DNA of 64,000 nucleotides from a virus: the IMG/VR virus record IMGVR_UViG_3300021956_000001; one strand, written 5' to 3'. The stretch's first letter is position 1. The number at the start of each line of letters is the position of its first letter. The notes beneath the pieces were generated by a model, which did not search any database, was not told the DNA's origin, and saw nothing but the letters and a program-made list of their open reading frames with translations. Shown in pieces: positions 41,555-63,534 of the stretch. The translations under genes and the position numbers were made by a program.

Positions 41555-41634
41555 TATTTATTACTTTCAATTAAACATTTAGGACACAATCCTTCAGCAC
41601 TCTTTTCAATAAGATGTGTAGGACAAGTGTTCAT
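41554..41634 (-). CDS. 26-aa Cys/His micro-protein
   Basis: Hand translation MNTCPTHLIEKSAEGLCPKCLIESNK; TAATG coupling on both sides. Confidence 0.3.
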   Translation of the reverse strand: MNTCPTHLIEKSAEGLCPKCLIESNK

Positions 41635-41960
41635 TATTTATTATTTTTAGCTTTACGCTCAGCACCCATTTTCTTAAATGTCTTAGCTAATGCTTTACGT
41701 TTAGGTGTACATGTAGCTTTTGTCATTGGTGTGCAATATCCTTTATGTTTTGGATTAACAGCTTTCTGGATCCAATTACCATCTTTAGCTTTGACAGTAG
41801 CTCCTTTTTTAGCAATTACACCACGTCCTTTAAGAACATCAGCTTTAGTAATTTTTCCATCTTTATTAAGATCAGGAAATGAACCACCAGCTTTAGCTTT
41901 TTTAGGTAAAGATCCTCTCATTCTTGGAGCATCTTGGATAAGTTTTTTAATAGTAGCCAT
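41634..41960 (-). CDS. Lys-rich basic protein, MATIKK family member 1 (108 aa)
   Basis: Starts MATIKK; about 25 Lys in 108 aa by my count; ..TPKRKALAKTFKK shared with member 3. Confidence 0.65.
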   Translation of the reverse strand: MATIKKLIQDAPRMRGSLPKKAKAGGSFPDLNKDGKITKADVLKGRGVIAKKGATVKAKDGNWIQKAVNPKHKGYCTPMTKATCTPKRKALAKTFKKMGAERKAKNNK

Positions 41961-41966
41961 GATATA

Positions 41967-42365
41967 TTATTTTTTAGACATTTTACCACCACACTTCATA
42001 CAACCACCAGTTTTCATTTTAGTTGCACCAAGTTCTTTATCTTTCGTCAAAGAAGCTTTTCCTTTAGCACCACCTAATGTTCTCTTTTGAACTTTTGTGT
42101 ATGCACCTTTAGGATCTACAGGACCAACTCTTTTAGCTTGACCTTTAGTCCCAGCGGAAACAGAACCACCATTTTTCTTTTTAGGATAGTTTTTATTAGT
42201 CTTAGGATCTAACATTTTTTTATACTTAGGAATATCATTTAAGTATTGAAAATCTTGAGGATGTTTTGCAACATCTTTATCAGAGATTTTAACACCACTC
42301 ATTTCCCCAGGTTTAGAAGTTCCATTTTGGGCTTTTTTAATGCCAGTTTTTTTAATAGTTGCCAT
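41967..42365 (-). CDS. Lys-rich basic protein, MATIKK family member 2 (132 aa)
   Basis: Starts MATIKK; K/G-rich; C-terminal GGCMKCGGK. Confidence 0.65.
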   Translation of the reverse strand: MATIKKTGIKKAQNGTSKPGEMSGVKISDKDVAKHPQDFQYLNDIPKYKKMLDPKTNKNYPKKKNGGSVSAGTKGQAKRVGPVDPKGAYTKVQKRTLGGAKGKASLTKDKELGATKMKTGGCMKCGGKMSKK

Positions 42366-42396
42366 TGTATTGTTTTATAGATTAATTGTTAATTAT

Positions 42397-42819
42397 TTAG
42401 CAGTTCCATTTACGAAGAGCAAGTGCTTTTCTTGTAGGTTTGCCATCTTTTTTCATAGGACCTTTAACACCAGACATACGAGCACAAAAACTTTTTCTTC
42501 TATTGGCAGATTTACTTCCAGGTTTAAGCTTAGAAGGAGGTGTTGTAACAGCCATTTTTAATTTACTGCCAGGATTAGCACGTCTATAACTTGCTACTCC
42601 CTTTCTATTAAGTCCTCCTTTAGGATCTTTACCTTCAGATCTGGTCCAAGCTGGTGTACTAGCACCATTCTTTGCTTGTTTTATCTTCTTTTCTTGTTGA
42701 AGCATTTCCTTAGTAGGTTGTTTGCCAGATCCTTTATTAGCACGGATGTTATCCCACAAACCACGTTGTGAAGAACTTCCATCAGCTCTTTTAATTAAAG
42801 GTTTTTTAATTGTTGCCAT
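42397..42819 (-). CDS. Lys/Arg-rich basic protein, MATIKK family member 3 (140 aa)
   Basis: Starts MATIKK; RGLWDNIRANKGSGK; ..KPTRKALALRKWNC. Confidence 0.65.
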   Translation of the reverse strand: MATIKKPLIKRADGSSSQRGLWDNIRANKGSGKQPTKEMLQQEKKIKQAKNGASTPAWTRSEGKDPKGGLNRKGVASYRRANPGSKLKMAVTTPPSKLKPGSKSANRRKSFCARMSGVKGPMKKDGKPTRKALALRKWNC

Positions 42820-50991: not shown

Positions 50992-51265
50992 TTTTCTTTT
51001 TTTCTGGTGCTGGTTGAGTAGCTGGTGCAGCTTTTTCTTTAATGATTACAGTTTTACCTGGAGCAGCTTGTTGTTGCTTTTGTTGGTTAGTGTTTGTAAT
51101 ATTAATTACTGGAGCAGGTGCAGGAGCTGCAACTTCTTGCTTAGCTTCTTCTTTATCTTCACCATTTAACTTAGTTGTTACAAATCCACCTACAGCCACT
51201 GTAATTGTACTTGCCAATCCTATAAGGATGTTCTTGATTGAGTTTCCTCCTTGTTCTTCGCTCAT
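50972..51265 (-). CDS. TM protein with low-complexity A/P/Q/K tail (97 aa)
   Basis: ILIGLASTITVAVGGFVTT helix. Confidence 0.5.
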   Translation of the reverse strand: MSEEQGGNSIKNILIGLASTITVAVGGFVTTKLNGEDKEEAKQEVAAPAPAPVINITNTNQQKQQQAAPGKTVIIKEKAAPATQPAPEKKKNEEEPW

Positions 51266-51633
51266 AATAAATTAATTAAGGTTTTACCTATTTGTTGATT
51301 GTTTGAGTTATATAATTGAAGCTCGTATGAACTTCTTGGTAATGCTTTTGTATATACAGATAGTAAGTTATCTCCAGCTTTAGCATCTACTGATTCTGAA
51401 GAAACTGTCTTACCAGATAAGTCAACTATTTTAATTGTCACTTTATCTGCTGCTTCTAGTCTTACATTCATCTGTGCTTCTGCAGTAACAAAGTTTGAAG
51501 CAAGTTTAATACCAACAGTGCTAAGTCCTAACTCTGCAGGAACAGAAGATGAAGGAGCAACAATTGCATTATCAACCTCTGAACAAGAAAACATAAATGT
51601 AAACAATATAATTGGGATGAGTAATCTTTTCAT
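51262..51633 (-). CDS. small lipoprotein whose mature part resembles a T9SS type-A C-terminal sorting domain
   Basis: MKRLLIPIILFTFMFSC; KVTIKIVDLSGKTVSSESVDAKAGDNLLSVYTKALPRSSYELQLYNSNNQQIGKTLINL matches the beta-sandwich pattern of por_Secre_tail domains. Confidence 0.45.
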   Translation of the reverse strand: MKRLLIPIILFTFMFSCSEVDNAIVAPSSSVPAELGLSTVGIKLASNFVTAEAQMNVRLEAADKVTIKIVDLSGKTVSSESVDAKAGDNLLSVYTKALPRSSYELQLYNSNNQQIGKTLINLL

Positions 51634-53930: not shown

Positions 53931-54251
53931 TTATTTATTAAGGTTAGTATACAAGTTAGTAAAATATTGAACAACAAGAGCTGTAGCTACAATGATACCA
54001 ATGGTCCATGTAAATCTCTTTTTGAAATCTTCTTGTTGTTGAAGTTTATCTTCTAATATTTTTATTTTGTCTTTAAGGTCGTCTATGTCTTTAACAAAGC
54101 CACCGCTTTTGGTAAGGGCATTACCAAGAATAGCATCTACTACTTGTGTTAGTTTAGTGTCTATTGAAGTCATTTTTTCCTCTAGATCGTACAATCTTTG
54201 GTCCATGCTTTTTAATTCTTTTTCTACCTGTTGTTCAAAAGGTTGTGCCAT
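53931..54251 (-). CDS. coiled-coil protein with C-terminal TM anchor (106 aa)
   Basis: First gene of the minus-strand unit; WTIGIIVATALVVQYF. Confidence 0.55.
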   Translation of the reverse strand: MAQPFEQQVEKELKSMDQRLYDLEEKMTSIDTKLTQVVDAILGNALTKSGGFVKDIDDLKDKIKILEDKLQQQEDFKKRFTWTIGIIVATALVVQYFTNLYTNLNK

Positions 54252-54333
54252 GTTAATATTCCGTAAAAGTTAATGTAACGCAAAATGCCCAGCCTGTTCT
54301 GACTGGGTGTGTTGGTTATATATAATTGAACAA

Positions 54334-54341
54334 CAAATGTA
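54334..54341 (-). promoter_or_regulatory. Bacteroidota-type -7 box (minus strand TACATTTG)
   Basis: Plus-strand CAAATGTA in the divergent intergenic region, ~83 nt upstream of ATG 54251. Confidence 0.35.
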
Positions 54342-54417
54342 ATTTATTATATTATAAATATAAAGCCCTGAAAATAACTATTATGCATAATATAGCATAA
54401 CGTAAAAATATTTTTTA

Positions 54418-54425
54418 TATCTTTG
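54418..54425 (+). promoter_or_regulatory. Bacteroidota-type -7 box TATCTTTG
   Basis: 19 nt upstream of ATG 54444. Confidence 0.45.
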
Positions 54426-54443
54426 ATTTTTAAAACCAAGCTC

Positions 54444-56531
54444 ATGAAAATACTATATCTAGCACCTCATTTATCTACAGGAGGAATGCCAGCTTTTCTA
54501 TTGAAAACAATAGAGACACTTAAAGATGATGTTGAAATATGCGTTGTAGAATATGCATGTCATAGTCTTGATTATGTAGTACAACGTAATGCCATTATGG
54601 ATCTTGTTCCTGTATATACATTACATGAAGATAAGATGGAACTATTCAATGTAATAGAAGAATTCAAACCAGATGTAATTCATATACACGAACCATCAGA
54701 AAGATTGGATAGAAGGATGATTACTAAGCTATATGATAACAATAGGACCTATCGTATTGTAGAAACATGTCATGATGTATCATTCAATCCAGATGAAGAA
54801 AAAATATTTCATCCAGACTATTATGCATTCTGTACTCCTTACCATGTAGATACATTTGGTAAGATGCCATCTATGTATAGTGTTATAGAGTTTCCTATTG
54901 ATGATTATAGATTATCTGAAGAAGATGTATATGAAACTAAGATAGCTTTAGGTATGAATCTTAAAATGAAGCATGTTGTGAATGTTGGTCTTTGGACTCC
55001 TGGTAAGAATCAAGGTGAAATGTTAGAACTAGCTAGACAAATGCCAGATGTAGCATTTCATTTTGTAGGTAATCAAGCTGGAAACTTTGAACACTATTGG
55101 GGACCATTGATGAAAGCTGGAGTTCCAGATAATGTAAAGATATGGGGAGAAAGAAGTGATGCTGATAGATTTATAGATGCAGCAGATGTGTTTATGTTCA
55201 ACAGCACATGGGAATGTAATCCTTTGGTAATAAGAGAAGCTATATCTAAGGGTAAGAAGATCTTAGCTAGAAATCTTCCTCAGTACAAGAATATGTTCAC
55301 TAGATACATTACAAATCTAGATCCAAGAAAACTAAAGAATCAATTGTCAGATCTTCTTGAAGATAAAACAACTTATGATATTCTTAAGAATAACACAACA
55401 GCTAATTTTAGAAATAAATTAATGTCACTATATAGAGTGGTAACAGAATTTGATATTATGAAAAATGATGTAAAAGATTATAAGATTACGCAACACTTTG
55501 TAGGTCAACCATTTATAGAAATTACAGGAACAAGTGATAGTAATTTTACTATCGAATTCTATGATGAAACAGATAACTTATTCCATAGAGATGTAGTGAA
55601 GATTAATCACTGGGTAAAACTTAGTAGAGAATATTACACACAATGGACAACTAAAGTGTATAAAGATGATGAGCTAGTGTATACTAACTTATTAAACTAT
55701 GCAGATCAAAGAGTGTATATTGCTTTTGATAGTTCTTCATTAGGAGATAATATTGCTTGGATGCCTTATGTAGAAGAATTCAGAAAGAAGCATCATTGTA
55801 AAATGATTGTTTCTACATTCAAAAACTTCTTGTTTGAATCTCAGTACCCAGAGATTGAATTTGTTGAACCAGGATCCATAGTTACTAACTTGTATGGGAT
55901 GTATAAAATTGGTTGGTTCTATGATTATAACAAGGAACCTACATTACCAAACACTATACCATTACAAATGGCAGCTACAAATATTTTAGGTCTTGAGTAC
56001 ACAGAAATAAAACCTGAGATTATAGATCATAAAGATGATAGTGTTAGTGGATACATTACAATAGCTACTAATAGTACAGCAGGATGTAAGTTCTGGACTA
56101 GAGAGGGCTGGCAAGAAGTAATTAACTATTTACATGGAGAAGGCTGGTTAGTAATCAATACATCTAAAGAATCTAATCCTTTTGATAACTGTCAACCACT
56201 TCTTAATACAAGTATGGATAATACGATCACAGCTATATCTAATAGCAAGTTCTTCATTGGACTATCTAGTGGATTATCATGGTTAGCCTGGGCATTAGAA
56301 ACTCCTGTTATAATGATTTCTAACTTTACAGAAGAAGGTCATGAATTCAGTTGTCATAGAGTGACTAATACCAATGTATGTTATGGATGTTGGAATGATC
56401 CTAAATATAAGTTTGATAGAGGAGATTGGGATTGGTGTCCTGTACATAAGGGTACAGACAGACAATTTGAATGTCACAAAGAAATAACACCAGAGATGGT
56501 TATTACAGAAATAAAAAAGCTCCTTAATTAG
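54444..56531 (+). CDS. two-domain glycosyltransferase: N-terminal GT4 (GT-B) plus C-terminal GT9 heptosyltransferase-like domain
   Basis: Track start 54423 is TTG; ATG 54444 gives MKILYLAPHLSTGGMP (GT4 N-terminus), ECNPLVIREA (ExxxxxxxE). C-terminal RVYIAFDSSSLGDNIAWMPYV, ITIATNSTAGCKFWTREGW, FIGLSSGLSWLAWAL (GT9 blocks). Then a Cys-rich tail. Confidence 0.7.
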   Translation: MKILYLAPHLSTGGMPAFLLKTIETLKDDVEICVVEYACHSLDYVVQRNAIMDLVPVYTLHEDKMELFNVIEEFKPDVIHIHEPSERLDRRMITKLYDNNRTYRIVETCHDVSFNPDEEKIFHPDYYAFCTPYHVDTFGKMPSMYSVIEFPIDDYRLSEEDVYETKIALGMNLKMKHVVNVGLWTPGKNQGEMLELARQMPDVAFHFVGNQAGNFEHYWGPLMKAGVPDNVKIWGERSDADRFIDAADVFMFNSTWECNPLVIREAISKGKKILARNLPQYKNMFTRYITNLDPRKLKNQLSDLLEDKTTYDILKNNTTANFRNKLMSLYRVVTEFDIMKNDVKDYKITQHFVGQPFIEITGTSDSNFTIEFYDETDNLFHRDVVKINHWVKLSREYYTQWTTKVYKDDELVYTNLLNYADQRVYIAFDSSSLGDNIAWMPYVEEFRKKHHCKMIVSTFKNFLFESQYPEIEFVEPGSIVTNLYGMYKIGWFYDYNKEPTLPNTIPLQMAATNILGLEYTEIKPEIIDHKDDSVSGYITIATNSTAGCKFWTREGWQEVINYLHGEGWLVINTSKESNPFDNCQPLLNTSMDNTITAISNSKFFIGLSSGLSWLAWALETPVIMISNFTEEGHEFSCHRVTNTNVCYGCWNDPKYKFDRGDWDWCPVHKGTDRQFECHKEITPEMVITEIKKLLN

Positions 56532-56537
56532 GAGCTT
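56517..56537. terminator. bidirectional terminator
   Basis: AAAAAGCTCC-TTAATTA-GGAGCTTTTATTTT between convergent genes. Confidence 0.65.
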
Positions 56538-56542
56538 TTATT

Positions 56543-56731
56543 TTATGCGTTTGCTTTTACAACCTTATCCTTCATAGGACCTTCTGGTCTCTGATCTAGT
56601 GGTGTTGATATCACCTCAATAGCTTTAGCAATTGCAACAGCTTGTTGTAATGTAAATGCTCCTCTTAATTGAGCATCATTAGCAGCTTGGATCAATATAC
56701 CCAACGCATCATTTACAGTCATGTTTTCCAT
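56543..56731 (-). CDS. hypothetical helical protein (62 aa)
   Basis: ATG ORF, last gene of the fibre operon. Confidence 0.5.
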   Translation of the reverse strand: MENMTVNDALGILIQAANDAQLRGAFTLQQAVAIAKAIEVISTPLDQRPEGPMKDKVVKANA

Positions 56732-56773
56732 AATATTGTTGATTTATATTACAAAGATAATATTAATTTTTTA

Positions 56774-57115
56774 TTAAAAATTAATATTTGGAATATATCC
56801 TATTAAATCAAATAATGTTCTATAATCAACAGTTATTTCTACTTCATTTGGTATATTTTTATTTGATATCATTACTATACAATCATCAATTAATTCAACA
56901 TTTGTATTTGGATTATCAGAATGATTAGTATATCTTCCTAAATCATCTGTTTCATTCCAGGGTTCCTGCATTGTTTCTTTTTGCCAAAGATATCTTGACT
57001 CTTCACTTTGAGCCTCTTTAGTTACCCATTTACCAATAATAGTATCTATATTAATATTAGATGTAGATACTATTTTAATATTATTTAAATCAGATTTATC
57101 TATTTTATAATTCAT
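56774..57115 (-). CDS. minimal SET-domain protein (putative protein lysine methyltransferase), 113 aa
   Basis: LGRYTNHSDNPNT (cf. RFxNHSCxPN) and NEVEITVDYR (cf. GEELTxDY); size like chlorovirus vSET; TAATG-coupled to the upstream gene. Confidence 0.5.
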   Translation of the reverse strand: MNYKIDKSDLNNIKIVSTSNINIDTIIGKWVTKEAQSEESRYLWQKETMQEPWNETDDLGRYTNHSDNPNTNVELIDDCIVMISNKNIPNEVEITVDYRTLFDLIGYIPNINF

Positions 57116-57951
57116 TACTTGATATTATGAGTAAGTATATTATTTGCAAAATAAGTATGTGAAGGAGATAATGATAATGGATATATTGTTTTAATTTCTT
57201 TATTAAATTTAACAGAAGTTACTTCTATTTCATTTTTATTAATATCATATAAATAATCTCCAATTTGAATAGATCCTATAGTATCAAATCTCCATAAACC
57301 ATCTCTTTTATATAATTGACTATGGAAAGGAGTTGCTTCTAATAATCCATCATTTATCATAACAGTTTGATCAGCAGTTTGTTTTTCAATTTTAATAATA
57401 GGAGAATCTATTCTTGATTCTTGTAAATTATAAGTATTCCATTTATAAAGTTCTTCTACATCATTTGTATCTGTTAATGTACTTATATTAGATGACATTA
57501 ATAACTGATCAACATAAAGATTTTCTATTGGTACCTGTTGTCCATTCACAAGTGTTATTAAAGTTCCTTCTACAAAACATATAACACAAGCACTTGCTGC
57601 TGCTAAAACAGTAGTACTACTACTCCATGATCTAGCTATACTTCCATCAGAATAAAATGCAGTAGAAGCGTATGTAGTTCCTCCTGAATTAGTATAAATC
57701 TTAGTTGCTGTACTTAAATCAGATGAATTTATATAAAAATATCCTGCTGATACTCCACTACAAGCTATAGTTTTTGTACTTCCATAATATAAATATACAT
57801 AAGTTAGTGAACTGTATCCATAAAATTCAGATATAGCATCAGGAGTAGTCTTTCCAGCTGCAACACTTAATGTGTGCAATGAATAACTAGAGCTACCTAA
57901 TGCTGTATGAATTTGAGAAATCGATAAAGGTCCTGAACTTGGTAATGCCAT
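57115..57951 (-). CDS. protein with C-terminal Hint (intein/hedgehog-type autoprocessing) domain
   Basis: Block A CFVEGTLITLVNG at Cys125, block B TPFH, blocks F/G YPLSLSPSHTYFANNILTHN followed only by IK-stop. Confidence 0.7.
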   Translation of the reverse strand: MALPSSGPLSISQIHTALGSSSYSLHTLSVAAGKTTPDAISEFYGYSSLTYVYLYYGSTKTIACSGVSAGYFYINSSDLSTATKIYTNSGGTTYASTAFYSDGSIARSWSSSTTVLAAASACVICFVEGTLITLVNGQQVPIENLYVDQLLMSSNISTLTDTNDVEELYKWNTYNLQESRIDSPIIKIEKQTADQTVMINDGLLEATPFHSQLYKRDGLWRFDTIGSIQIGDYLYDINKNEIEVTSVKFNKEIKTIYPLSLSPSHTYFANNILTHNIK

Positions 57952-57957
57952 TTGTTA

Positions 57958-58323
57958 TTAGATTAGTAAAGTGGTAGTACTAGTTGTTGTTGGTGCCCAA
58001 GGAGAAGGTACTGGTTCATACTTAGGAGCTATTTGAGCTTCAATCTGTTTTGTAATACGCTCTTGCATATGTACTTTATCAGAAACAGCCTCTAACCAAG
58101 CTACAACATTTTCTGGTTGTAAGTCTGCAAAAGGAATATAGTTTTCTGTATCTGTAGGAAGAGGCATAGGAGTTGCTCCTATAAAGACACCTTCAATACC
58201 ATCTTCGTTTATACCAACATAGTTATATCTAACTCTTGTTACTACGTCTGTTAATTCTCCCAACACTGGAGCTATCTCCAGTTTCATTGTGTCATCTGTT
58301 AAGAATGTGAATGTTATTGCCAT
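57958..58323 (-). CDS. hypothetical fibre-module protein (121 aa)
   Basis: TAATG-coupled to fibre gene; ends PTTTSTTTLLI. Confidence 0.55.
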   Translation of the reverse strand: MAITFTFLTDDTMKLEIAPVLGELTDVVTRVRYNYVGINEDGIEGVFIGATPMPLPTDTENYIPFADLQPENVVAWLEAVSDKVHMQERITKQIEAQIAPKYEPVPSPWAPTTTSTTTLLI

Positions 58324-61300
58324 TATTTATTTATTAATTGGTTAACTAATTGTTTTAATTCTTCTATTTGTGTTTGTTGTTCTTTTATTGCTTCGATAAA
58401 TAATCCAGCTAAGTTACCATATGCTACTGAGTATTTATCTTTTTCATCAATTCTAACAACCTCTGGTATTACATTTAATAATTCTTGAGCTATAACTCCC
58501 ATATATATTGTGCTATCTCCATCAGGGTTAATATCATTTCTGTTAAATGTAACTCCTCTTATAGATTGTATTTTTGATACAGCGTTTTCTATAGTCTTTA
58601 TATTTTCTTTTAATCTAGCATCTGAGTATGCTATGACATCACCAGGAGAAGTAAAATCACCATTATTATTAAATTTCCATATCTTAGGTGTTGATAATGC
58701 ACCATCTCCTGTAAGTTTAATGGCACCGTATCCATTGTCACTAGCAATAGGTCTAACATATCCAAACTGTGTAGTATTAGCATATCCTGCTGTTGTTGTA
58801 CTATATCCTTGAATAAGTGGGTAAAAGTAATCAGCATTAGCTGTTAATCCTCCATTACTATTTCCAGTAAATGGAGCTACTCCTACAGACCCACCTGTAG
58901 ATATAGAATCAGCACCTGGATTTGTAGCTGTTATTCTTCCTGAATTACTTATAGAAGCAACATTTCCATTTGTTGTATTTCTAAATATCCAACCTCTATT
59001 AGCTGTTGAATCCATAGTAAAGTATGTAGCCCAATCTGCTGATACAGCTCCAAAAGTACCAAATGTTGCTGTTCCAGCAAACATTATACCATAAGTAGGT
59101 TGACCTCCCCCATAGTTAGCTCCATACAATGATAATCCATTACCTGAAGTACTAGATGAGTTATTTACTCCTATCCATGGTGCTTGCAATCTATTTGCAA
59201 CATCTACCACATTTAAGTTACTAGTAGACGCTGGATCCAAGTAATAACCAGTATTATTATAATCGTAATAAATAGTTCCATATACAGCTCCACTAAAGTT
59301 AGAATAGCTAGAATAATTTCCAGAATGCAATATAGATACCCAACTGTTCCATGAACCAGAAGTCATTCTTCTAAGTCTCCAGTCATCACTCCAAAAAGAT
59401 CCAGTCATCTGCCATCTATATCCATCTGAACCTGACCAAGAACCTCCAGCTACAGTAAGCCAATTCCACCAATCAGTACTAGGCATTCCAGTAACACTTG
59501 TTCCAAAATAAAATCCAGAAGAGTTAGAACTATCAGATGTGTTGGCATTACCACTACTCATTCCTTTAGATCTACCATTAGCATTATCTCCAAAAACTTG
59601 TCTATCTGCTGCAATTCCACCTAAACTTGCAGCATCACCTGAAGTATCTGAATAAGCAACTTCAACTGAATCTGGAGTAGCTGGACTTGCTTTAAATCTC
59701 CATCTGTTAGCAGATGAATTATAAGTTAAATATCCATAATATGGATTAGCACTACCATATGCATAAGCTGCATCTGTTGAATATAGTTTTGATGAATTTG
59801 TTGCATAAACTGCTGTTGTAGGTGTTGTACCACTAGTACCAGAAACACCACTAGATCCACTTGTTCCATTAACTCCTGAGGTTCCATTAACTCCTGAACT
59901 ACCAGATGTTCCATTCACACCACTTGTGCCTGATACACCTGATGTACCAGAAACTCCTGAAGTTCCACTTACACCACTTGTACCATTAAAGCCACTGGTT
60001 CCATTTGATCCATTAACTCCACTTGTTCCGTTCACTCCAGAAGTACCATTGATTCCTGATGTACCATTAACACCAGAAGAACCAGACGTTCCATTAATAC
60101 CACTGGTACCATTTATTCCACTTGACCCTGAAGATCCTGAAGTACCGTTTACACCACTAGTTCCATTTACTCCTGACGTACCTGCTGTACCACTTGTACC
60201 ATTCACACCAGATGTTCCTGACGTACCATTTATTCCTGAACTTCCTGAAGATCCATTTAGACCAGAAGATCCACTAGTTCCATTAATTCCACTTGTGCCA
60301 CTTGTACCATTTATTCCTGACGTTCCACTAGTCCCATCAATACCAGAAGAGCCAGATGACCCACTAGTACCAGTTGTTCCACTGGTTCCATTAACACCAC
60401 TACTTCCTGATGTCCCATCAGATCCTGTAAATCCAGAACTTCCAGATGTACCTGTTGTACCTGACGAACCAGAGGTCCCTGTAGTACCAGAAGTACCATT
60501 AGTTCCAGCTGCAGCAGCAATAGATGTTGTTACATATGAATATTCACTATCTTCTGTATACCAAGAAACAACTTTTGATGTACTCTCATAGTTACTAAAA
60601 TAAATCTTAACAATCATTCTATCTGTAGCAGCTACAGCAGTATGAGGAAATACTACATCAAGATTAGTTTCTGATATAATTCCCATACCATTCCAACTAA
60701 TAATAGAAGGAGATGATGTTATTAAAGATCCATAAGGAGTTCCTGTTGAATTAGCTAATTGTAATGTTACGTAAACTTGTATATCATCATTAGCTTGAGG
60801 TTTCATTGCATGTAAGTGAAATCTCTGTACACCTGATGGAATAATTGTAAATCCAAATTGATCACTAATAAATGATTGGACAAGGTCATCATGTTGATTA
60901 CCAGCCATTGTAAGAGTGACAGTTTGTAATCCAGTTGTTGTAGGAGTAGTAGATAATGCTTTATATGGAGAAATAGAAGAGTTTTGACTATTATTAAAAT
61001 AATAAACTCTACCACCACTCACTCCATCTACACCACTAGTACCTCCAGTTCCACTTGTTCCTGTTGTACCGCTTGTTCCACTAGAGCCACTAGTACCACT
61101 GGTTCCAGTAGTCCCAGAAGTTCCAGAGGTACCATCAGATCCATTAGACCCACTGGTTCCTGAACTCCCACTAGTTCCACTAGTTCCATCTATTGCACTT
61201 GTACCTGACGTACCACTAGTTCCCCCAGTACCATTAGTTCCCGAAGTTCCTGAGCTACCAGAGCTTCCTCCAGTTCCATCTGTGCCTGAAGATCCACTAG

Positions 61301-61664
61301 AGCCTGAAGTACCATCAATAGCTGATGTACCAGATGTTCCAGAAGTACCTCCTGTTCCATCAGTACCACTAGTACCTGAAGTGCCAGACGTACCATTAGA
61401 ACCTCTTGTACCACTGCTACCGCTAGTACCATTAACTCCAGGAACTCCTGATAAGTTAACAGTCCAATTACAGCATTCACCACTTCCTACAAATTTATCT
61501 GGAGTGATTACTAACTCTCCAGTAGAAGGATTATATGATACAACTTGACCGTTTATGTAATTACAATTGTCACAATATAACATTAAAAAGTCCCCAGGAC
61601 CATAAGCTAGTCCTGAAGAGATAGTAATTGTTAAATCGCAATATGGAGAAGATGGACAACTCAT
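58323..61664 (-). CDS. tail fibre/spike protein with two collagen-like tracts and C-terminal peptidase S74 intramolecular chaperone domain
   Basis: Long G-X-Y runs (GTSGSSGTNG...); C-terminus YSDARLKENI..IRGVTFNR..MGVIAQEL..VAYGNLAGLFIEAIKEQQ matches the endosialidase-type chaperone domain. Confidence 0.85.
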   Translation of the reverse strand: MSCPSSPYCDLTITISSGLAYGPGDFLMLYCDNCNYINGQVVSYNPSTGELVITPDKFVGSGECCNWTVNLSGVPGVNGTSGSSGTRGSNGTSGTSGTSGTDGTGGTSGTSGTSAIDGTSGSSGSSGTDGTGGSSGSSGTSGTNGTGGTSGTSGTSAIDGTSGTSGSSGTSGSNGSDGTSGTSGTTGTSGTSGSSGTSGTTGTSGTGGTSGVDGVSGGRVYYFNNSQNSSISPYKALSTTPTTTGLQTVTLTMAGNQHDDLVQSFISDQFGFTIIPSGVQRFHLHAMKPQANDDIQVYVTLQLANSTGTPYGSLITSSPSIISWNGMGIISETNLDVVFPHTAVAATDRMIVKIYFSNYESTSKVVSWYTEDSEYSYVTTSIAAAAGTNGTSGTTGTSGSSGTTGTSGSSGFTGSDGTSGSSGVNGTSGTTGTSGSSGSSGIDGTSGTSGINGTSGTSGINGTSGSSGLNGSSGSSGINGTSGTSGVNGTSGTAGTSGVNGTSGVNGTSGSSGSSGINGTSGINGTSGSSGVNGTSGINGTSGVNGTSGVNGSNGTSGFNGTSGVSGTSGVSGTSGVSGTSGVNGTSGSSGVNGTSGVNGTSGSSGVSGTSGTTPTTAVYATNSSKLYSTDAAYAYGSANPYYGYLTYNSSANRWRFKASPATPDSVEVAYSDTSGDAASLGGIAADRQVFGDNANGRSKGMSSGNANTSDSSNSSGFYFGTSVTGMPSTDWWNWLTVAGGSWSGSDGYRWQMTGSFWSDDWRLRRMTSGSWNSWVSILHSGNYSSYSNFSGAVYGTIYYDYNNTGYYLDPASTSNLNVVDVANRLQAPWIGVNNSSSTSGNGLSLYGANYGGGQPTYGIMFAGTATFGTFGAVSADWATYFTMDSTANRGWIFRNTTNGNVASISNSGRITATNPGADSISTGGSVGVAPFTGNSNGGLTANADYFYPLIQGYSTTTAGYANTTQFGYVRPIASDNGYGAIKLTGDGALSTPKIWKFNNNGDFTSPGDVIAYSDARLKENIKTIENAVSKIQSIRGVTFNRNDINPDGDSTIYMGVIAQELLNVIPEVVRIDEKDKYSVAYGNLAGLFIEAIKEQQTQIEELKQLVNQLINK
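59826..60512 (-). repeat. collagen-like G-X-Y coding tract (approximate bounds)
   Basis: About 229 codons of G-[TSVI]-[SNTG] triplets. Confidence 0.8.
61020..61448 (-). repeat. collagen-like G-X-Y coding tract (approximate bounds)
   Basis: GVPGVNGTSG...GVDGVSGG with two GTSAIDGTSG interruptions. Confidence 0.8.
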
Positions 61665-61689: not shown

Positions 61690-63534
61690 TTAGCTACATG
61701 GAACATAAGTGTCACCTAAGAATGCTCCACAACATAAAGATGTTGATACTATTGAATATACACAAATTTCTATTGGATACTCTCCATAAGTCAATGTTAC
61801 AGATTGTTCTATATTTGAACAATCTATATAATTTACAGTTGCTGAATCTCCAGGATTTTCAGTTGGTGCAGTGAATGTCCACTTAGTGCACGATAATGGT
61901 GCTATTGTTGTACTAGTAGTTGTAGTTGTACTAGATGTACTGGATGTAGTAGTAGTTGTACATAATGATAAAGGAAGAGTTATACAACTTGTAGAGTTTC
62001 CTCTATATGAAAATGTAGCTCCTGAAGAACCACTGGTTCCTGTTGTTCCTGAACTACCTGATGTTCCAGTTGTACCACTAGTTCCGCTTGTACCTCCAGT
62101 ACCATCTGTTGCAGATGTTCCACTAGTACCTGTAGTTCCTGATGTTCCTGTGGTACCAGATGTACCGTTTGAACCATTAGATCCTGAAGTACCTGTTGTT
62201 CCCGAAGTACCATCAGAACCATTACTTCCACTTGTACCAGAGGTAGCACTAGTTCCAGAGCTTCCTGAAGTACCATTACTTCCTCGTGTACCACTTGTTC
62301 CATTGGTACCATTAGTACCGTTAAAACCTGATGTACCTGAGGTACCATTAGAGCCATGTGTTCCAGAAGAACCATTGCTTCCACTAGTTCCATTTGATCC
62401 GTTAGATCCAGAAGTTCCAGCAGAACCATTAGTCCCTGATGAGCCACTAGTTCCATGAGAACCAGTTGTACCACTAGATCCTGTAGTTCCACTAGTACCG
62501 TTGGTACCGCTAGATCCATTACTTCCTGAAGTTCCAAATGTACCGTTTATTCCACTAGTACCTGATGTTCCATTTCTACCGTTACTACCAGAGGTACCAA
62601 ATGTACCATTTAATCCTGAAGTACCACTAGATCCGTGAGACCCTGATGTTCCACTTGATCCATTACCACCATCAGCTCCAGAGGTGCCTGATGTACCATG
62701 TGTACCACTACTACCAGAAGAACCTGAAGAACCGTTTGATCCAGAGGTACCAGTAATACCTGATGTACCACTAGACCCACTATTTCCACTAGTTCCACTT
62801 GTACCATTAATAGCAGAACTACCAGAAGTACCAGCAGTCCCTGAAGAACCAGTTAATCCACTACTTCCACTTGTACCTGTAGTTCCAGAGCTACCACTTG
62901 TTCCATGTGAACCTGTTAACCCTGAGCTTCCAGAAGTCCCAGAACTTCCATCCCCACCAGAGGCACCAGCAAGATTGATTGTCCAAGAAGAATAAGTTCC
63001 TGATCCAACACAATTAACTGGGTTTATAAATGCTAATTCTCCTGTAGATGGATTATATGATGTTACTGTAGCTTCAAATGAATTATTTTGATCATGGGCT
63101 ATAATAATAGTTTGTCCTACACTATATGCTAATTCTGAATTAACAACAATTAATGCAGGATCGCACATGTCAAATGTTGAATAGGAAGGAGTTCTATATC
63201 TATCTCCATTCTCTCCTGATGTTCCTGATGTTCCAGCACTACCAGAGGTTCCACTAGTACCAGTTGTACCAGAAGTTCCTGAACTACCACTTGTAGCAGA
63301 TGTACCAGAACTACCATGAGTCCCAGAGGTTCCAGATGTTCCTGTTAAACCACTAGTACCTGACGTACCAGATGTTCCACTAACACCACAAATAGCTTGA
63401 TCAATTTTGATCAGAGCCATTTCTAAAGTGTCATTAGTATTAATTCCAGTACATATTAAATTACCTCCTTCGTAAAATACGCAGGTGGTGCTTAATATGA
63501 TAGGACAGGGAGCAGCTTCGCAAAATGGATTCAT
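61690..63534 (-). CDS. collagen-like fibre protein (614 aa) with Cys-rich termini
   Basis: Two G-X-Y tracts flanking a domain homologous to the N-terminus of 58323..61664 (SYNPSTGEL..VGSG..W[TI][VI]NL[SA]G); S/T tract near the C-terminus. Confidence 0.8.
   Translation of the reverse strand: MNPFCEAAPCPIILSTTCVFYEGGNLICTGINTNDTLEMALIKIDQAICGVSGTSGTSGTSGLTGTSGTSGTHGSSGTSATSGSSGTSGTTGTSGTSGSAGTSGTSGENGDRYRTPSYSTFDMCDPALIVVNSELAYSVGQTIIIAHDQNNSFEATVTSYNPSTGELAFINPVNCVGSGTYSSWTINLAGASGGDGSSGTSGSSGLTGSHGTSGSSGTTGTSGSSGLTGSSGTAGTSGSSAINGTSGTSGNSGSSGTSGITGTSGSNGSSGSSGSSGTHGTSGTSGADGGNGSSGTSGSHGSSGTSGLNGTFGTSGSNGRNGTSGTSGINGTFGTSGSNGSSGTNGTSGTTGSSGTTGSHGTSGSSGTNGSAGTSGSNGSNGTSGSNGSSGTHGSNGTSGTSGFNGTNGTNGTSGTRGSNGTSGSSGTSATSGTSGSNGSDGTSGTTGTSGSNGSNGTSGTTGTSGTTGTSGTSATDGTGGTSGTSGTTGTSGSSGTTGTSGSSGATFSYRGNSTSCITLPLSLCTTTTTSSTSSTTTTTSTTIAPLSCTKWTFTAPTENPGDSATVNYIDCSNIEQSVTLTYGEYPIEICVYSIVSTSLCCGAFLGDTYVPCS
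62015..62965 (-). repeat. collagen-like G-X-Y coding tract (approximate bounds)
   Basis: More than 300 codons of GTSGSSGxxG triplets. Confidence 0.8.
63200..63387 (-). repeat. collagen-like G-X-Y coding tract (approximate bounds)
   Basis: GVSGTSGTSGTSGLTG...GTSGENG. Confidence 0.8.

Follow-up and report, generated by a model that had tools for sequence, protein, structure and literature searches.

A 113-aa open reading frame (ORF) in the tail-fibre operon of IMG/VR virus record IMGVR_UViG_3300021956_000001 was found to encode a minimal SET-domain protein, the genes of whose family lie consistently and directly behind a gene ending in a Hint domain. The window (the whole 64,000-nucleotide stretch that was analysed) is the genome of a Flavobacterium-type phage with a G+C content of 33%, in which a DNA polymerase and rIIA/rIIB-like genes are encoded besides collagen-like tail fibres, and the Hint domain of the partner gene in it is of the A-type bacterial-intein-like (BIL) kind. 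The pairing suggests that Hint and SET form a two-gene module that modifies virion fibre proteins. On the strength of the sequences and structure models, the SET protein may well be an active late lysine methyltransferase that is dedicated to the Hint/fibre-accessory system and acts on phage structural proteins.

Identification of the SET-domain protein

The SET gene was located from the ORF list, the Pfam SET profile, AlphaFold, and Foldseek, and its motifs were read from the translation.

56774..57115, minus strand: SET gene, 113 aa, ATG start
57074..57082, minus strand: N12-I13-K14, in place of the canonical GxG motif I, which binds S-adenosylmethionine (SAM)
56906..56935, minus strand: SET motif III, RYTNHSDNPN, residues 61-70, with N64/H65 as the Asn-His of the SAM pocket
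56822..56845, minus strand: SET motif IV, EVEITVDY, residues 91-98, with Y98 as the predicted catalytic Tyr

The ORF was confirmed as a minimal SET-domain protein by its Pfam profile match, predicted fold, and conservation. The match to Pfam SET (PF00856) covered profile positions 4-104 of 105 and scored 37.2 bits (E 4.2e-9; gathering cut-off 22.4), which is far beyond chance. An AlphaFold2 model made with the family alignment reached a pLDDT of 96.4 and a pTM of 0.86, and its fold was assigned by the whole-domain superposition scores of Foldseek. Against the PDB, the top 50 matches of the model were all SET/PR-domain methyltransferases, solved or putative, at a probability of 1.00, and the matches included SETD8, MLL, vSET, Suv4-20, and EZH2. 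Against a viral library (BFVD), the top three matches and most of the named ones were SET proteins, several of them from 'uncultured Caudovirales phage'. Comparison of the SET family profile with PDB sequences returned KMT2C/D (E 1e-12), SETD8, and vSET (E 5.5e-9). A scan against NCBIfam gave no meaningful match, and PHROGs yielded only a weak match to an unnamed family.

The SET profile, motif III, motif IV, and the SET beta-fold were all found in the window protein; motif I (GxG) was not. Using hhalign and a vSET reference sequence identical to that of PDB 1n3j, the two proteins were aligned with 97.1% probability (E 6e-11), which placed N64/H65 on vSET N69/H70, Y98 on vSET Y105, and N-I-K opposite the G-Y-G of vSET. 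Motif III aligned with RYINHSCAPN of KMT2C/D and FNHSKDPN of vSET, and the Cys of NHSC is replaced by Asp in the window protein and by Lys in vSET, as expected for SET domains without the post-SET zinc cluster. GxG is kept in most members of the SET family, while N12 and K14 are invariant within the closest clade. An initial annotation, made from the sequence, had described both SET motifs at their usual spacing in the 113-aa ORF, with the catalytic Tyr inside EVEITVDY, and had likened the protein to vSET in size. The translation agrees: N64 and Y98 are 34 residues apart, compared with 36 for the aligned vSET pair N69-Y105, the putative catalytic Y98 is invariant in the family, and the lengths are 113 and 119 aa. 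The profile search and fold prediction that it proposed as checks both came out in favour of SET, the second by way of the modelled fold described above.

A HMMER search of 1.8 billion cluster representatives returned 47 SET relatives, mostly single-domain proteins of 105-130 aa, and a profile search gave 68 SET clusters, all but one with a match to PF00856. Members as short as 105 aa would, if active, rank as the smallest SET enzymes. Across two alignments, of 31 and 41 relatives with 23-53% identity to the window protein, N64, N70, E93, and Y98 were invariant, and G60, R61, and H65 were invariant or nearly so. The closest relatives (46-53% identity) are encoded in Flavobacterium chromosomes, namely those of F. 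anhuiense (a 'SET domain protein', 52% identical), F. crocinum, F. collinsii, F. olei, F. johnsoniae, and several metagenome-assembled genomes; an identical protein is present on 114-kb metagenomic contigs. With the SET protein as query, tblastn gave no match among 50,697 phage records, and megablast of a 10-kb region matched only a 63-nt stretch; an annotated reference is thus lacking among cultured or deposited phages.

The partner Hint protein

The gene immediately upstream of the SET gene encodes the following protein, whose Hint residues were read from the translation.

57115..57951, minus strand: partner gene, 278 aa, with an N-terminal anchor motif, a poorly predicted middle, and a C-terminal BIL-type Hint domain
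57118..57579, minus strand: Hint/BIL domain, residues 125-278, with Cys125 (CFVEGT), T207-x-x-H210, and a terminal T-H-N-I-K

The Pfam Hint models remained below threshold on the window partner (E 0.018) and rose above it on relatives. In the AlphaFold model, residues 125-278 were predicted with pLDDT values above 90, and residues 36-121 with values below 50. Foldseek comparison of the Hint domain ranked BIL2 of the Tetrahymena BUBL1 locus (6y75/6tmm, E 8.6e-11) and the Clostridium thermocellum BIL domain (2lwy, target-normalised TM 0.84) above mini-inteins and Hedgehog 1at0, and in an hmmsearch with the Hint profile BIL2 (E 9e-8) and the C. thermocellum BIL were the best sequence matches too. 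In an alignment of 32 Hint homologues, C125, H210, H275, N276, and K278 were invariant and T207 was nearly so; K278 was the sole invariant lysine of the Hint region. The His-Asn pair is followed by I-K-stop, with no Cys, Ser, or Thr at position +1, in contrast to the true inteins in the same scan, which show HN-C. The sequence T-H-N-x-K was found at 76 of the 78 junctions of the subfamily, with either 0-7 more residues or a second Hint domain behind it. The domain combines the Cys1, TxxH, and His-Asn residues, a Hint fold nearest to BIL domains, and the lack of a +1 nucleophile. The partner C-terminus was confirmed as a Hint/BIL domain by its predicted fold and profile match, and its junction bears the signature of the A type.

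An A-type BIL domain forms an N-terminal thioester and can cleave, but cannot splice canonically. The authors of the work on BIL2 describe resolution of its thioester on a lysine epsilon-amine, giving an isopeptide bond by which a ubiquitin-like domain is conjugated to targets without ATP (PMC8616854).

Over its 185 C-terminal residues, the window partner is 51% identical to its counterpart ahead of the F. anhuiense SET gene, and in each of the Flavobacterium clusters the product of the gene just before SET shows homology to the C-terminus of the window partner over its own last 154 residues. A tblastn search of the Hint domain against deposited phage records found only remote matches (26-30% identity), so that neither the SET nor the Hint gene had a detectable close homologue among the 50,697 genomes. 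Pfam and PDB sequence searches with the N-domain of the window partner returned nothing. Residues 1-47 of the partner (57811..57951, minus strand) form a motif (MALPSSGPLSISQI...ISEFYGY) that, at 70-83% identity, stands at the start of many metagenomic proteins that are unrelated in other respects, with Laminin_G_3, BNR/sortilin-type, and further domains. The motif has the look of a common anchor module by which various accessory domains are docked to the virion.

Pairing of the Hint and SET genes

Hidden Markov models for the SET family and the Hint domain were scanned over all ORFs of every locus fetched, the loci being obtained by exact-protein look-ups and by scans of IMG/VR, GTDB genomes, and JGI metagenomes. 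A SET protein was counted as family-level at E values of 1e-30 or lower to the SET family profile. The genome and metagenome collections were searched with narrower alignments, by which distant SET members are under-sampled. In the window, the two genes are joined by a stop/start overlap that was read from the sequence.

57113..57117, minus strand: TAATG stop/start overlap from the Hint-protein gene into the SET gene

In all of the approximately 28 distinct loci that encode a family-level SET, a Hint-ending ORF lay directly 5' of the SET gene on the same strand. The gap or overlap was 20 nt or less in 27 of the approximately 28; the exception was locus L015, with a 50-aa ORF between the two genes. 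In the reverse, Hint-seeded search, SET was downstream in four of four close IMG/VR Hint loci and in three further loci reached through the Hint protein. These loci span phage contigs, metagenomes, and Flavobacterium chromosomal fibre clusters, and the pair lies inside such clusters in at least 10 Flavobacterium genomes, F. johnsoniae among them. The chromosomal clusters hold Phage_fiber_rpt, Peptidase_S74, Gp53-like_C, and Phage_tail_APC, and SET is often their last gene before unrelated host genes.

Beyond the pair, the neighbourhoods differ, with host metabolic genes, a portal gene, 2-oxoglutarate (2OG)-Fe(II) oxygenases, radical-SAM genes, or fibres adjoining it. The partner N-domains are of at least five unrelated types, listed below, while six aligned Hint domains were 48-62% identical.

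'MAL..GP.S' anchor, with or without fn3
DUF5977 with fn3
1024-aa protein
'MGNLLS'
'MKGTLFSADF'

Since both the neighbours and the partner N-domains vary, the Hint domain itself is the constant companion of SET. The initial annotation had correctly reported the TAATG coupling, the position downstream of the fibre genes (the upstream genes encode collagen-like tail fibres, with Peptidase_S74), and a Hint domain in the upstream gene, an identification that is weak in Pfam and was secured by the AlphaFold model, Foldseek, and the profile search. It had, however, treated the Hint neighbour as incidental, and this did not hold, the Hint gene being the one invariant companion of the SET family. The likely target is thereby moved from host proteins or the lysine-rich MATIKK proteins of the window towards the Hint/fibre-accessory system. 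The annotation had also suggested that the late product may be packaged and may act on MATIKK proteins, fibre proteins, or host proteins after injection, ideas that stay speculative, with support neither gained nor lost.

The pairing could also reflect linkage by descent, with a Hint+SET 3' cassette shuffled among fibre-cluster genes and SET acting on an unrelated target such as the MATIKK proteins. Hint domains of 48-62% identity on unrelated N-domains are typical of fibre-module mosaicism, and the window does encode three tandem proteins starting with MATIKK (41634..42819, minus strand; 108, 132, and 140 aa) with lysine contents of 18-24%. Yet the pairing holds down to a SET identity of about 30% and recurs with the distinct tandem-Hint and SET clades described below, thus outlasting the usual neutral linkage in phages, and no MATIKK homologue was found at any other SET locus within flanks of only 3-10 kb on either side. 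We regard linkage by descent with an unrelated target as quite unlikely.

A separate clade consists of 760-912 aa proteins with two to three tandem Hint domains and a more distant SET protein of 145 aa, encoded about 160 nt downstream, which passes the Pfam threshold. Tandem-Hint proteins were seen in IMG/VR contigs L052, L057, L059, L061, L069-L074, and L083; their BIL-type Hint domains, two to three and possibly four in number, adjoin one another through HN-(K/R)-x-C junctions, the last ends in HN-K-stop, and the 145-aa SET is usually next. Their shared N-terminus (MKGTLFSADFVKDSNGNLRLLELNTDTGF) gave an impression of the Mg-binding E-x-N end of an ATP-grasp enzyme, which found no support in profile or PDB searches. 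Among distant phage SETs (E above 1e-25), there was usually no adjacent Hint gene, and a few had one about 3 kb upstream.

Fusion or recoding of Hint and SET (by frameshift, read-through, or trans-splicing onto SET) was rejected as an interpretation of the gene arrangement. It does not fit a spacing that runs from a 20-nt overlap to a 220-nt gap, in differing frames and even with a 50-aa ORF in between, nor a SET N-terminus without a conserved Cys, Ser, or Thr. The larger proteins matched by the SET query were no Hint-SET fusions but low-complexity or type IX secretion system (T9SS) artefacts, or SET-only proteins.

The Flavobacterium clusters (L001, L006, L008, L041-L045, and L100-L102) contain fibre genes, DUF5977 proteins with the same Hint end, and proteins of 1900-2500 aa; they may be prophages, tailocin-like particles, or something else. 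In L015, L016, and L021, which belong to one phage lineage, the pair lies amid two 2OG-Fe(II) oxygenase genes and radical-SAM, carbamoyltransferase, APS-kinase-like, and RuBisCO-large-subunit-like genes, a region that resembles a densely packed island for the modification of proteins or sugars.

Proposed function

Under the proposed function, the SET protein would be made late, on the same transcript as the tail fibres. The Hint domain would turn the peptide bond that precedes Cys125 into a thioester, through which the N-domain would be cleaved off or ligated, and SET would methylate a lysine of this reaction system, either K278 at the junction or acceptor or bystander lysines on the fibre complex. 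Methylation would then control or complete the maturation of a fibre-associated protein: methylated junction or acceptor lysines could steer resolution of the thioester towards hydrolysis, self-ligation, or trans-ligation or, alternatively, methylation could finish the mature C-terminus of the released domain. Of the partner proteins, the Hint domain alone stays constant, and for this reason the substrate is placed in the Hint/fibre-accessory system; because BIL2 makes isopeptide bonds on lysine, lysine chemistry would be common to the SET and Hint partners. The analysis shows the SET fold and motifs, their conservation in the family, the place of the gene in the operon, a BIL-type Hint domain, and its obligate pairing with SET; we infer the enzymatic activity, a phage structural protein as the substrate, and which lysine is modified. 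K278 as the specific target is a tentative and rather doubtful choice.

Several observations weigh against this proposal. Gene adjacency argues for functional linkage and not for the identity of a substrate, and since the loci share ancestry, the 28 of 28 do not amount to 28 independent events. No convincing SET was found within 4 kb of the tandem-Hint genes of L070 and L081, the latter having only a marginal match (E 8e-4) in a 46-aa ORF fragment at the contig edge, and some loci encode two or three Hint-ending proteins but one SET. BIL-like domains with no SET gene in their vicinity can likewise have lysine at +1 or +2 after HN, so K278 is not SET-specific; the junction lysine was accordingly dropped as a marker of SET-dependent Hint domains. 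Finally, the canonical GxG is replaced by N-I-K in the window SET and its closest clade. Motif I touches SAM chiefly via its backbone, and the loss of GxG thus lowers confidence in SAM binding without excluding it.

The replaced SAM motif would also suit a non-catalytic SET fold that helps the upstream fibre-accessory protein to assemble, as a chaperone or an adaptor, in the manner of the small Tfa-type chaperones encoded just after fibre genes, and the SET gene is indeed small and directly 3' of a fibre-cluster gene. This explanation is, in our judgement, very unlikely, since the Asn-His and Tyr catalytic positions are kept, invariant or nearly so, across a family of 23-53% identity, which is hard to account for without catalysis, and the partner N-domains, the part that would have to be folded, are unrelated between loci while SET is conserved.

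A more specific form of the methyltransferase proposal, drawn by analogy with BIL2, is that Hint and SET constitute a two-component, ATP-independent ligation system, in which Hint would put the fibre-accessory domain on a lysine by an isopeptide bond and SET would gate the reaction by methylating K278 or competing acceptors. We consider this form speculative and unlikely. If it were true, lysine methylation would decide where, when, and whether a covalent link forms, and the system would be a phage analogue of methylation-versus-ubiquitination cross-talk, run by a SET enzyme among the smallest known (105-119 aa).

Comparison with known systems

The protein vSET (chlorovirus PBCV-1 A612L, 119 aa, PDB 1n3j/3kma) is, like the window SET, virus-encoded, of the same size class, and a bare SET core without pre-SET or post-SET zinc domains, and the window model superposes on 3kma with a target-normalised TM of 0.64 in Foldseek. 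The two are about 21% identical and are not orthologues: vSET has GxG where the window protein has N-I-K, and its gene is not coupled to a Hint gene, whereas SET of the window family always stands behind one. The host of the vSET virus has histones, while the host of the window phage would, judging from the Flavobacterium relatives, be a bacterium without them.

A vSET-like host effector was considered, in which SET, packaged or made during infection, would methylate host proteins (HU, translation factors, or gliding-motility proteins) as vSET does histone H3K27. Its size and fold near those of vSET and its late gene adjoining virion genes are compatible with such a role, and host protein methylation goes up in infected Cellulophaga cells (PMC13288928). 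A host effector nevertheless gives no evident reason for an obligatory place behind Hint in about 28 of 28 loci, or for the same pair within the chromosomal fibre clusters of at least 10 Flavobacterium genomes, and we think this explanation unlikely.

A phage SET protein as such is not new, as database annotations exist already. The annotated phage, bacterial, and archaeal SETs (UniProt A0A6J5L8Y2; F. anhuiense) share the Pfam family and a similar length with the window protein, and no literature was found that gives them a substrate or notes a Hint neighbour. A SET domain of unknown role is also reported for ORF62 of Stenotrophomonas phage Ps15 in its genome paper (PMC9025141). The view that SET enzymes in tailed phages are barely characterised agrees with the literature searched, although SETs of 'uncultured Caudovirales phage' are annotated in UniProt/BFVD. 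What is new here is the obligate pairing of SET with a BIL Hint domain; no papers linking SET with Hint/BIL, or characterising a tailed-phage SET enzyme, were found in the literature searched.

With BIL2 (6y75/6tmm) and 2lwy, the partner Hint domain shares Cys1, TxxH, a C-terminal block of the NHxFFANG-LxHN type, and the absence of Cys, Ser, or Thr at +1. The phage Hint differs from these domains in being C-terminal with a tail of 2-9 residues (x-K...), in having a fibre-accessory N-extein and not a ubiquitin-like one, and in having a SET gene next to it; the literature searched mentions no SET partner for BIL domains. Peptidase_S74 of fibres and endosialidases, which is present on a fibre in the same operon, likewise sits at the C-terminus of phage fibre proteins and is self-cleaving, which makes it a functional analogue for a possible cleave-after-assembly role of Hint. 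Its fold is unrelated, it uses a Ser-Lys dyad where Hint uses a Cys thioester, and it has no associated methyltransferase.

The strict pairing with BIL provides an experimental handle on BIL function, for which no functional study in phage proteins was found. It also raises a possible coupling of thioester-based protein ligation and lysine methylation in virion assembly. The same Hint-SET pair, with a 119-aa SET and a DUF5977-Hint protein, is carried by F. johnsoniae (CP158862.1, L100), a genetically tractable species. According to proteomics published in 2026, capsid, portal, and tail-fibre proteins in phages of Cellulophaga (Flavobacteriaceae) bear methylated lysines, the marks being kept in free virions, and none of these phages is known to encode a methyltransferase (PMC13288928). 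The window SET, encoded in a fibre operon of a phage from a related host group, is a candidate phage-encoded 'writer' of such methyl marks on structural proteins. Which enzyme methylates the structural proteins of phages, and to what effect, thereby become directly testable questions.

Genomic context

The operon runs on the minus strand in the order 614-aa fibre, 1113-aa fibre, DUF7936, Hint protein, SET, and 62-aa protein, and meets a convergent glycosyltransferase gene. The features other than the Hint and SET genes are as follows.

61690..63534, minus strand: second collagen-like tail fibre protein, 614 aa (Pfam/PHROG)
58323..61664, minus strand: collagen-like tail fibre, 1113 aa, with a C-terminal Peptidase_S74 intramolecular chaperone (Pfam Collagen E 8e-46, Peptidase_S74 E 1.4e-13; PHROG tail fibre families)
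57958..58323, minus strand: DUF7936 gene, 121 aa, between the fibre and the Hint protein (Pfam PF25590, E 3e-12)
56543..56731, minus strand: 62-aa gene, the last of the operon (33% identity, E 3e-6, to a 60-aa ORF behind the SET gene of L010)
56515..56539, strand not assigned: bidirectional terminator-like hairpin with a 10-bp stem, which closes both the fibre-Hint-SET operon and the convergent gene (terminator scan)
54423..56531, plus strand: convergent 702-aa two-domain glycosyltransferase (GT1 and GT9, heptosyltransferase-like; Pfam)

A terminator scan of 54000..58500, which stops short of the fibre genes, detected nothing terminator-like on the coding strand over the DUF7936, Hint, SET, and 62-aa genes. 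This absence, together with the strong hairpin past the 62-aa gene, fits late co-expression. A sigma-70 promoter scan gave 26 sites compared with 29.8 expected, which is background, and is uninformative for a Bacteroidota phage.

The fibre proteins consist largely of collagen-like G-T/S-S triplets, and lysine makes up 19 of 1113 and 2 of 614 residues. Such lysine-poor fibres would offer few candidate sites if they were the substrate of SET. Homologues of DUF7936 (48-58% identity) occupy the same position in L010, L012, and L018/L050, and the 62-aa gene is kept behind SET in L010 at 33% identity. On this sequence evidence, the conserved block in the phage lineage may span four genes: DUF7936, Hint, SET, and the 62-aa gene.

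Homologues of the glycosyltransferase (52-54% identity) adjoin Hint and SET in the otherwise different phage contigs L021, L069, L073, and L083, and a GT2 gene lies behind the pair in L010; glycosylation may belong to the same modification neighbourhood as Hint-SET. The recurrence of glycosyltransferases and other modification enzymes beside the pair would be in keeping with methylation of a non-protein amine by SET, either a polyamine, a lipid or sugar amine, or a small-molecule adduct set on the thioester by Hint. Hedgehog-type Hint domains do pass their N-domain to a small molecule, namely cholesterol. As of a 2011 review, however, all characterised SET enzymes were protein-lysine methyltransferases (PMC3239186), and no specific small molecule is indicated at these loci, which makes a non-protein substrate highly improbable.

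Further from the operon, a 123-aa protein (51262..51633, minus strand) weakly matches Por_Secre_tail, the C-terminal sorting domain of the T9SS, in keeping with a Bacteroidota host.

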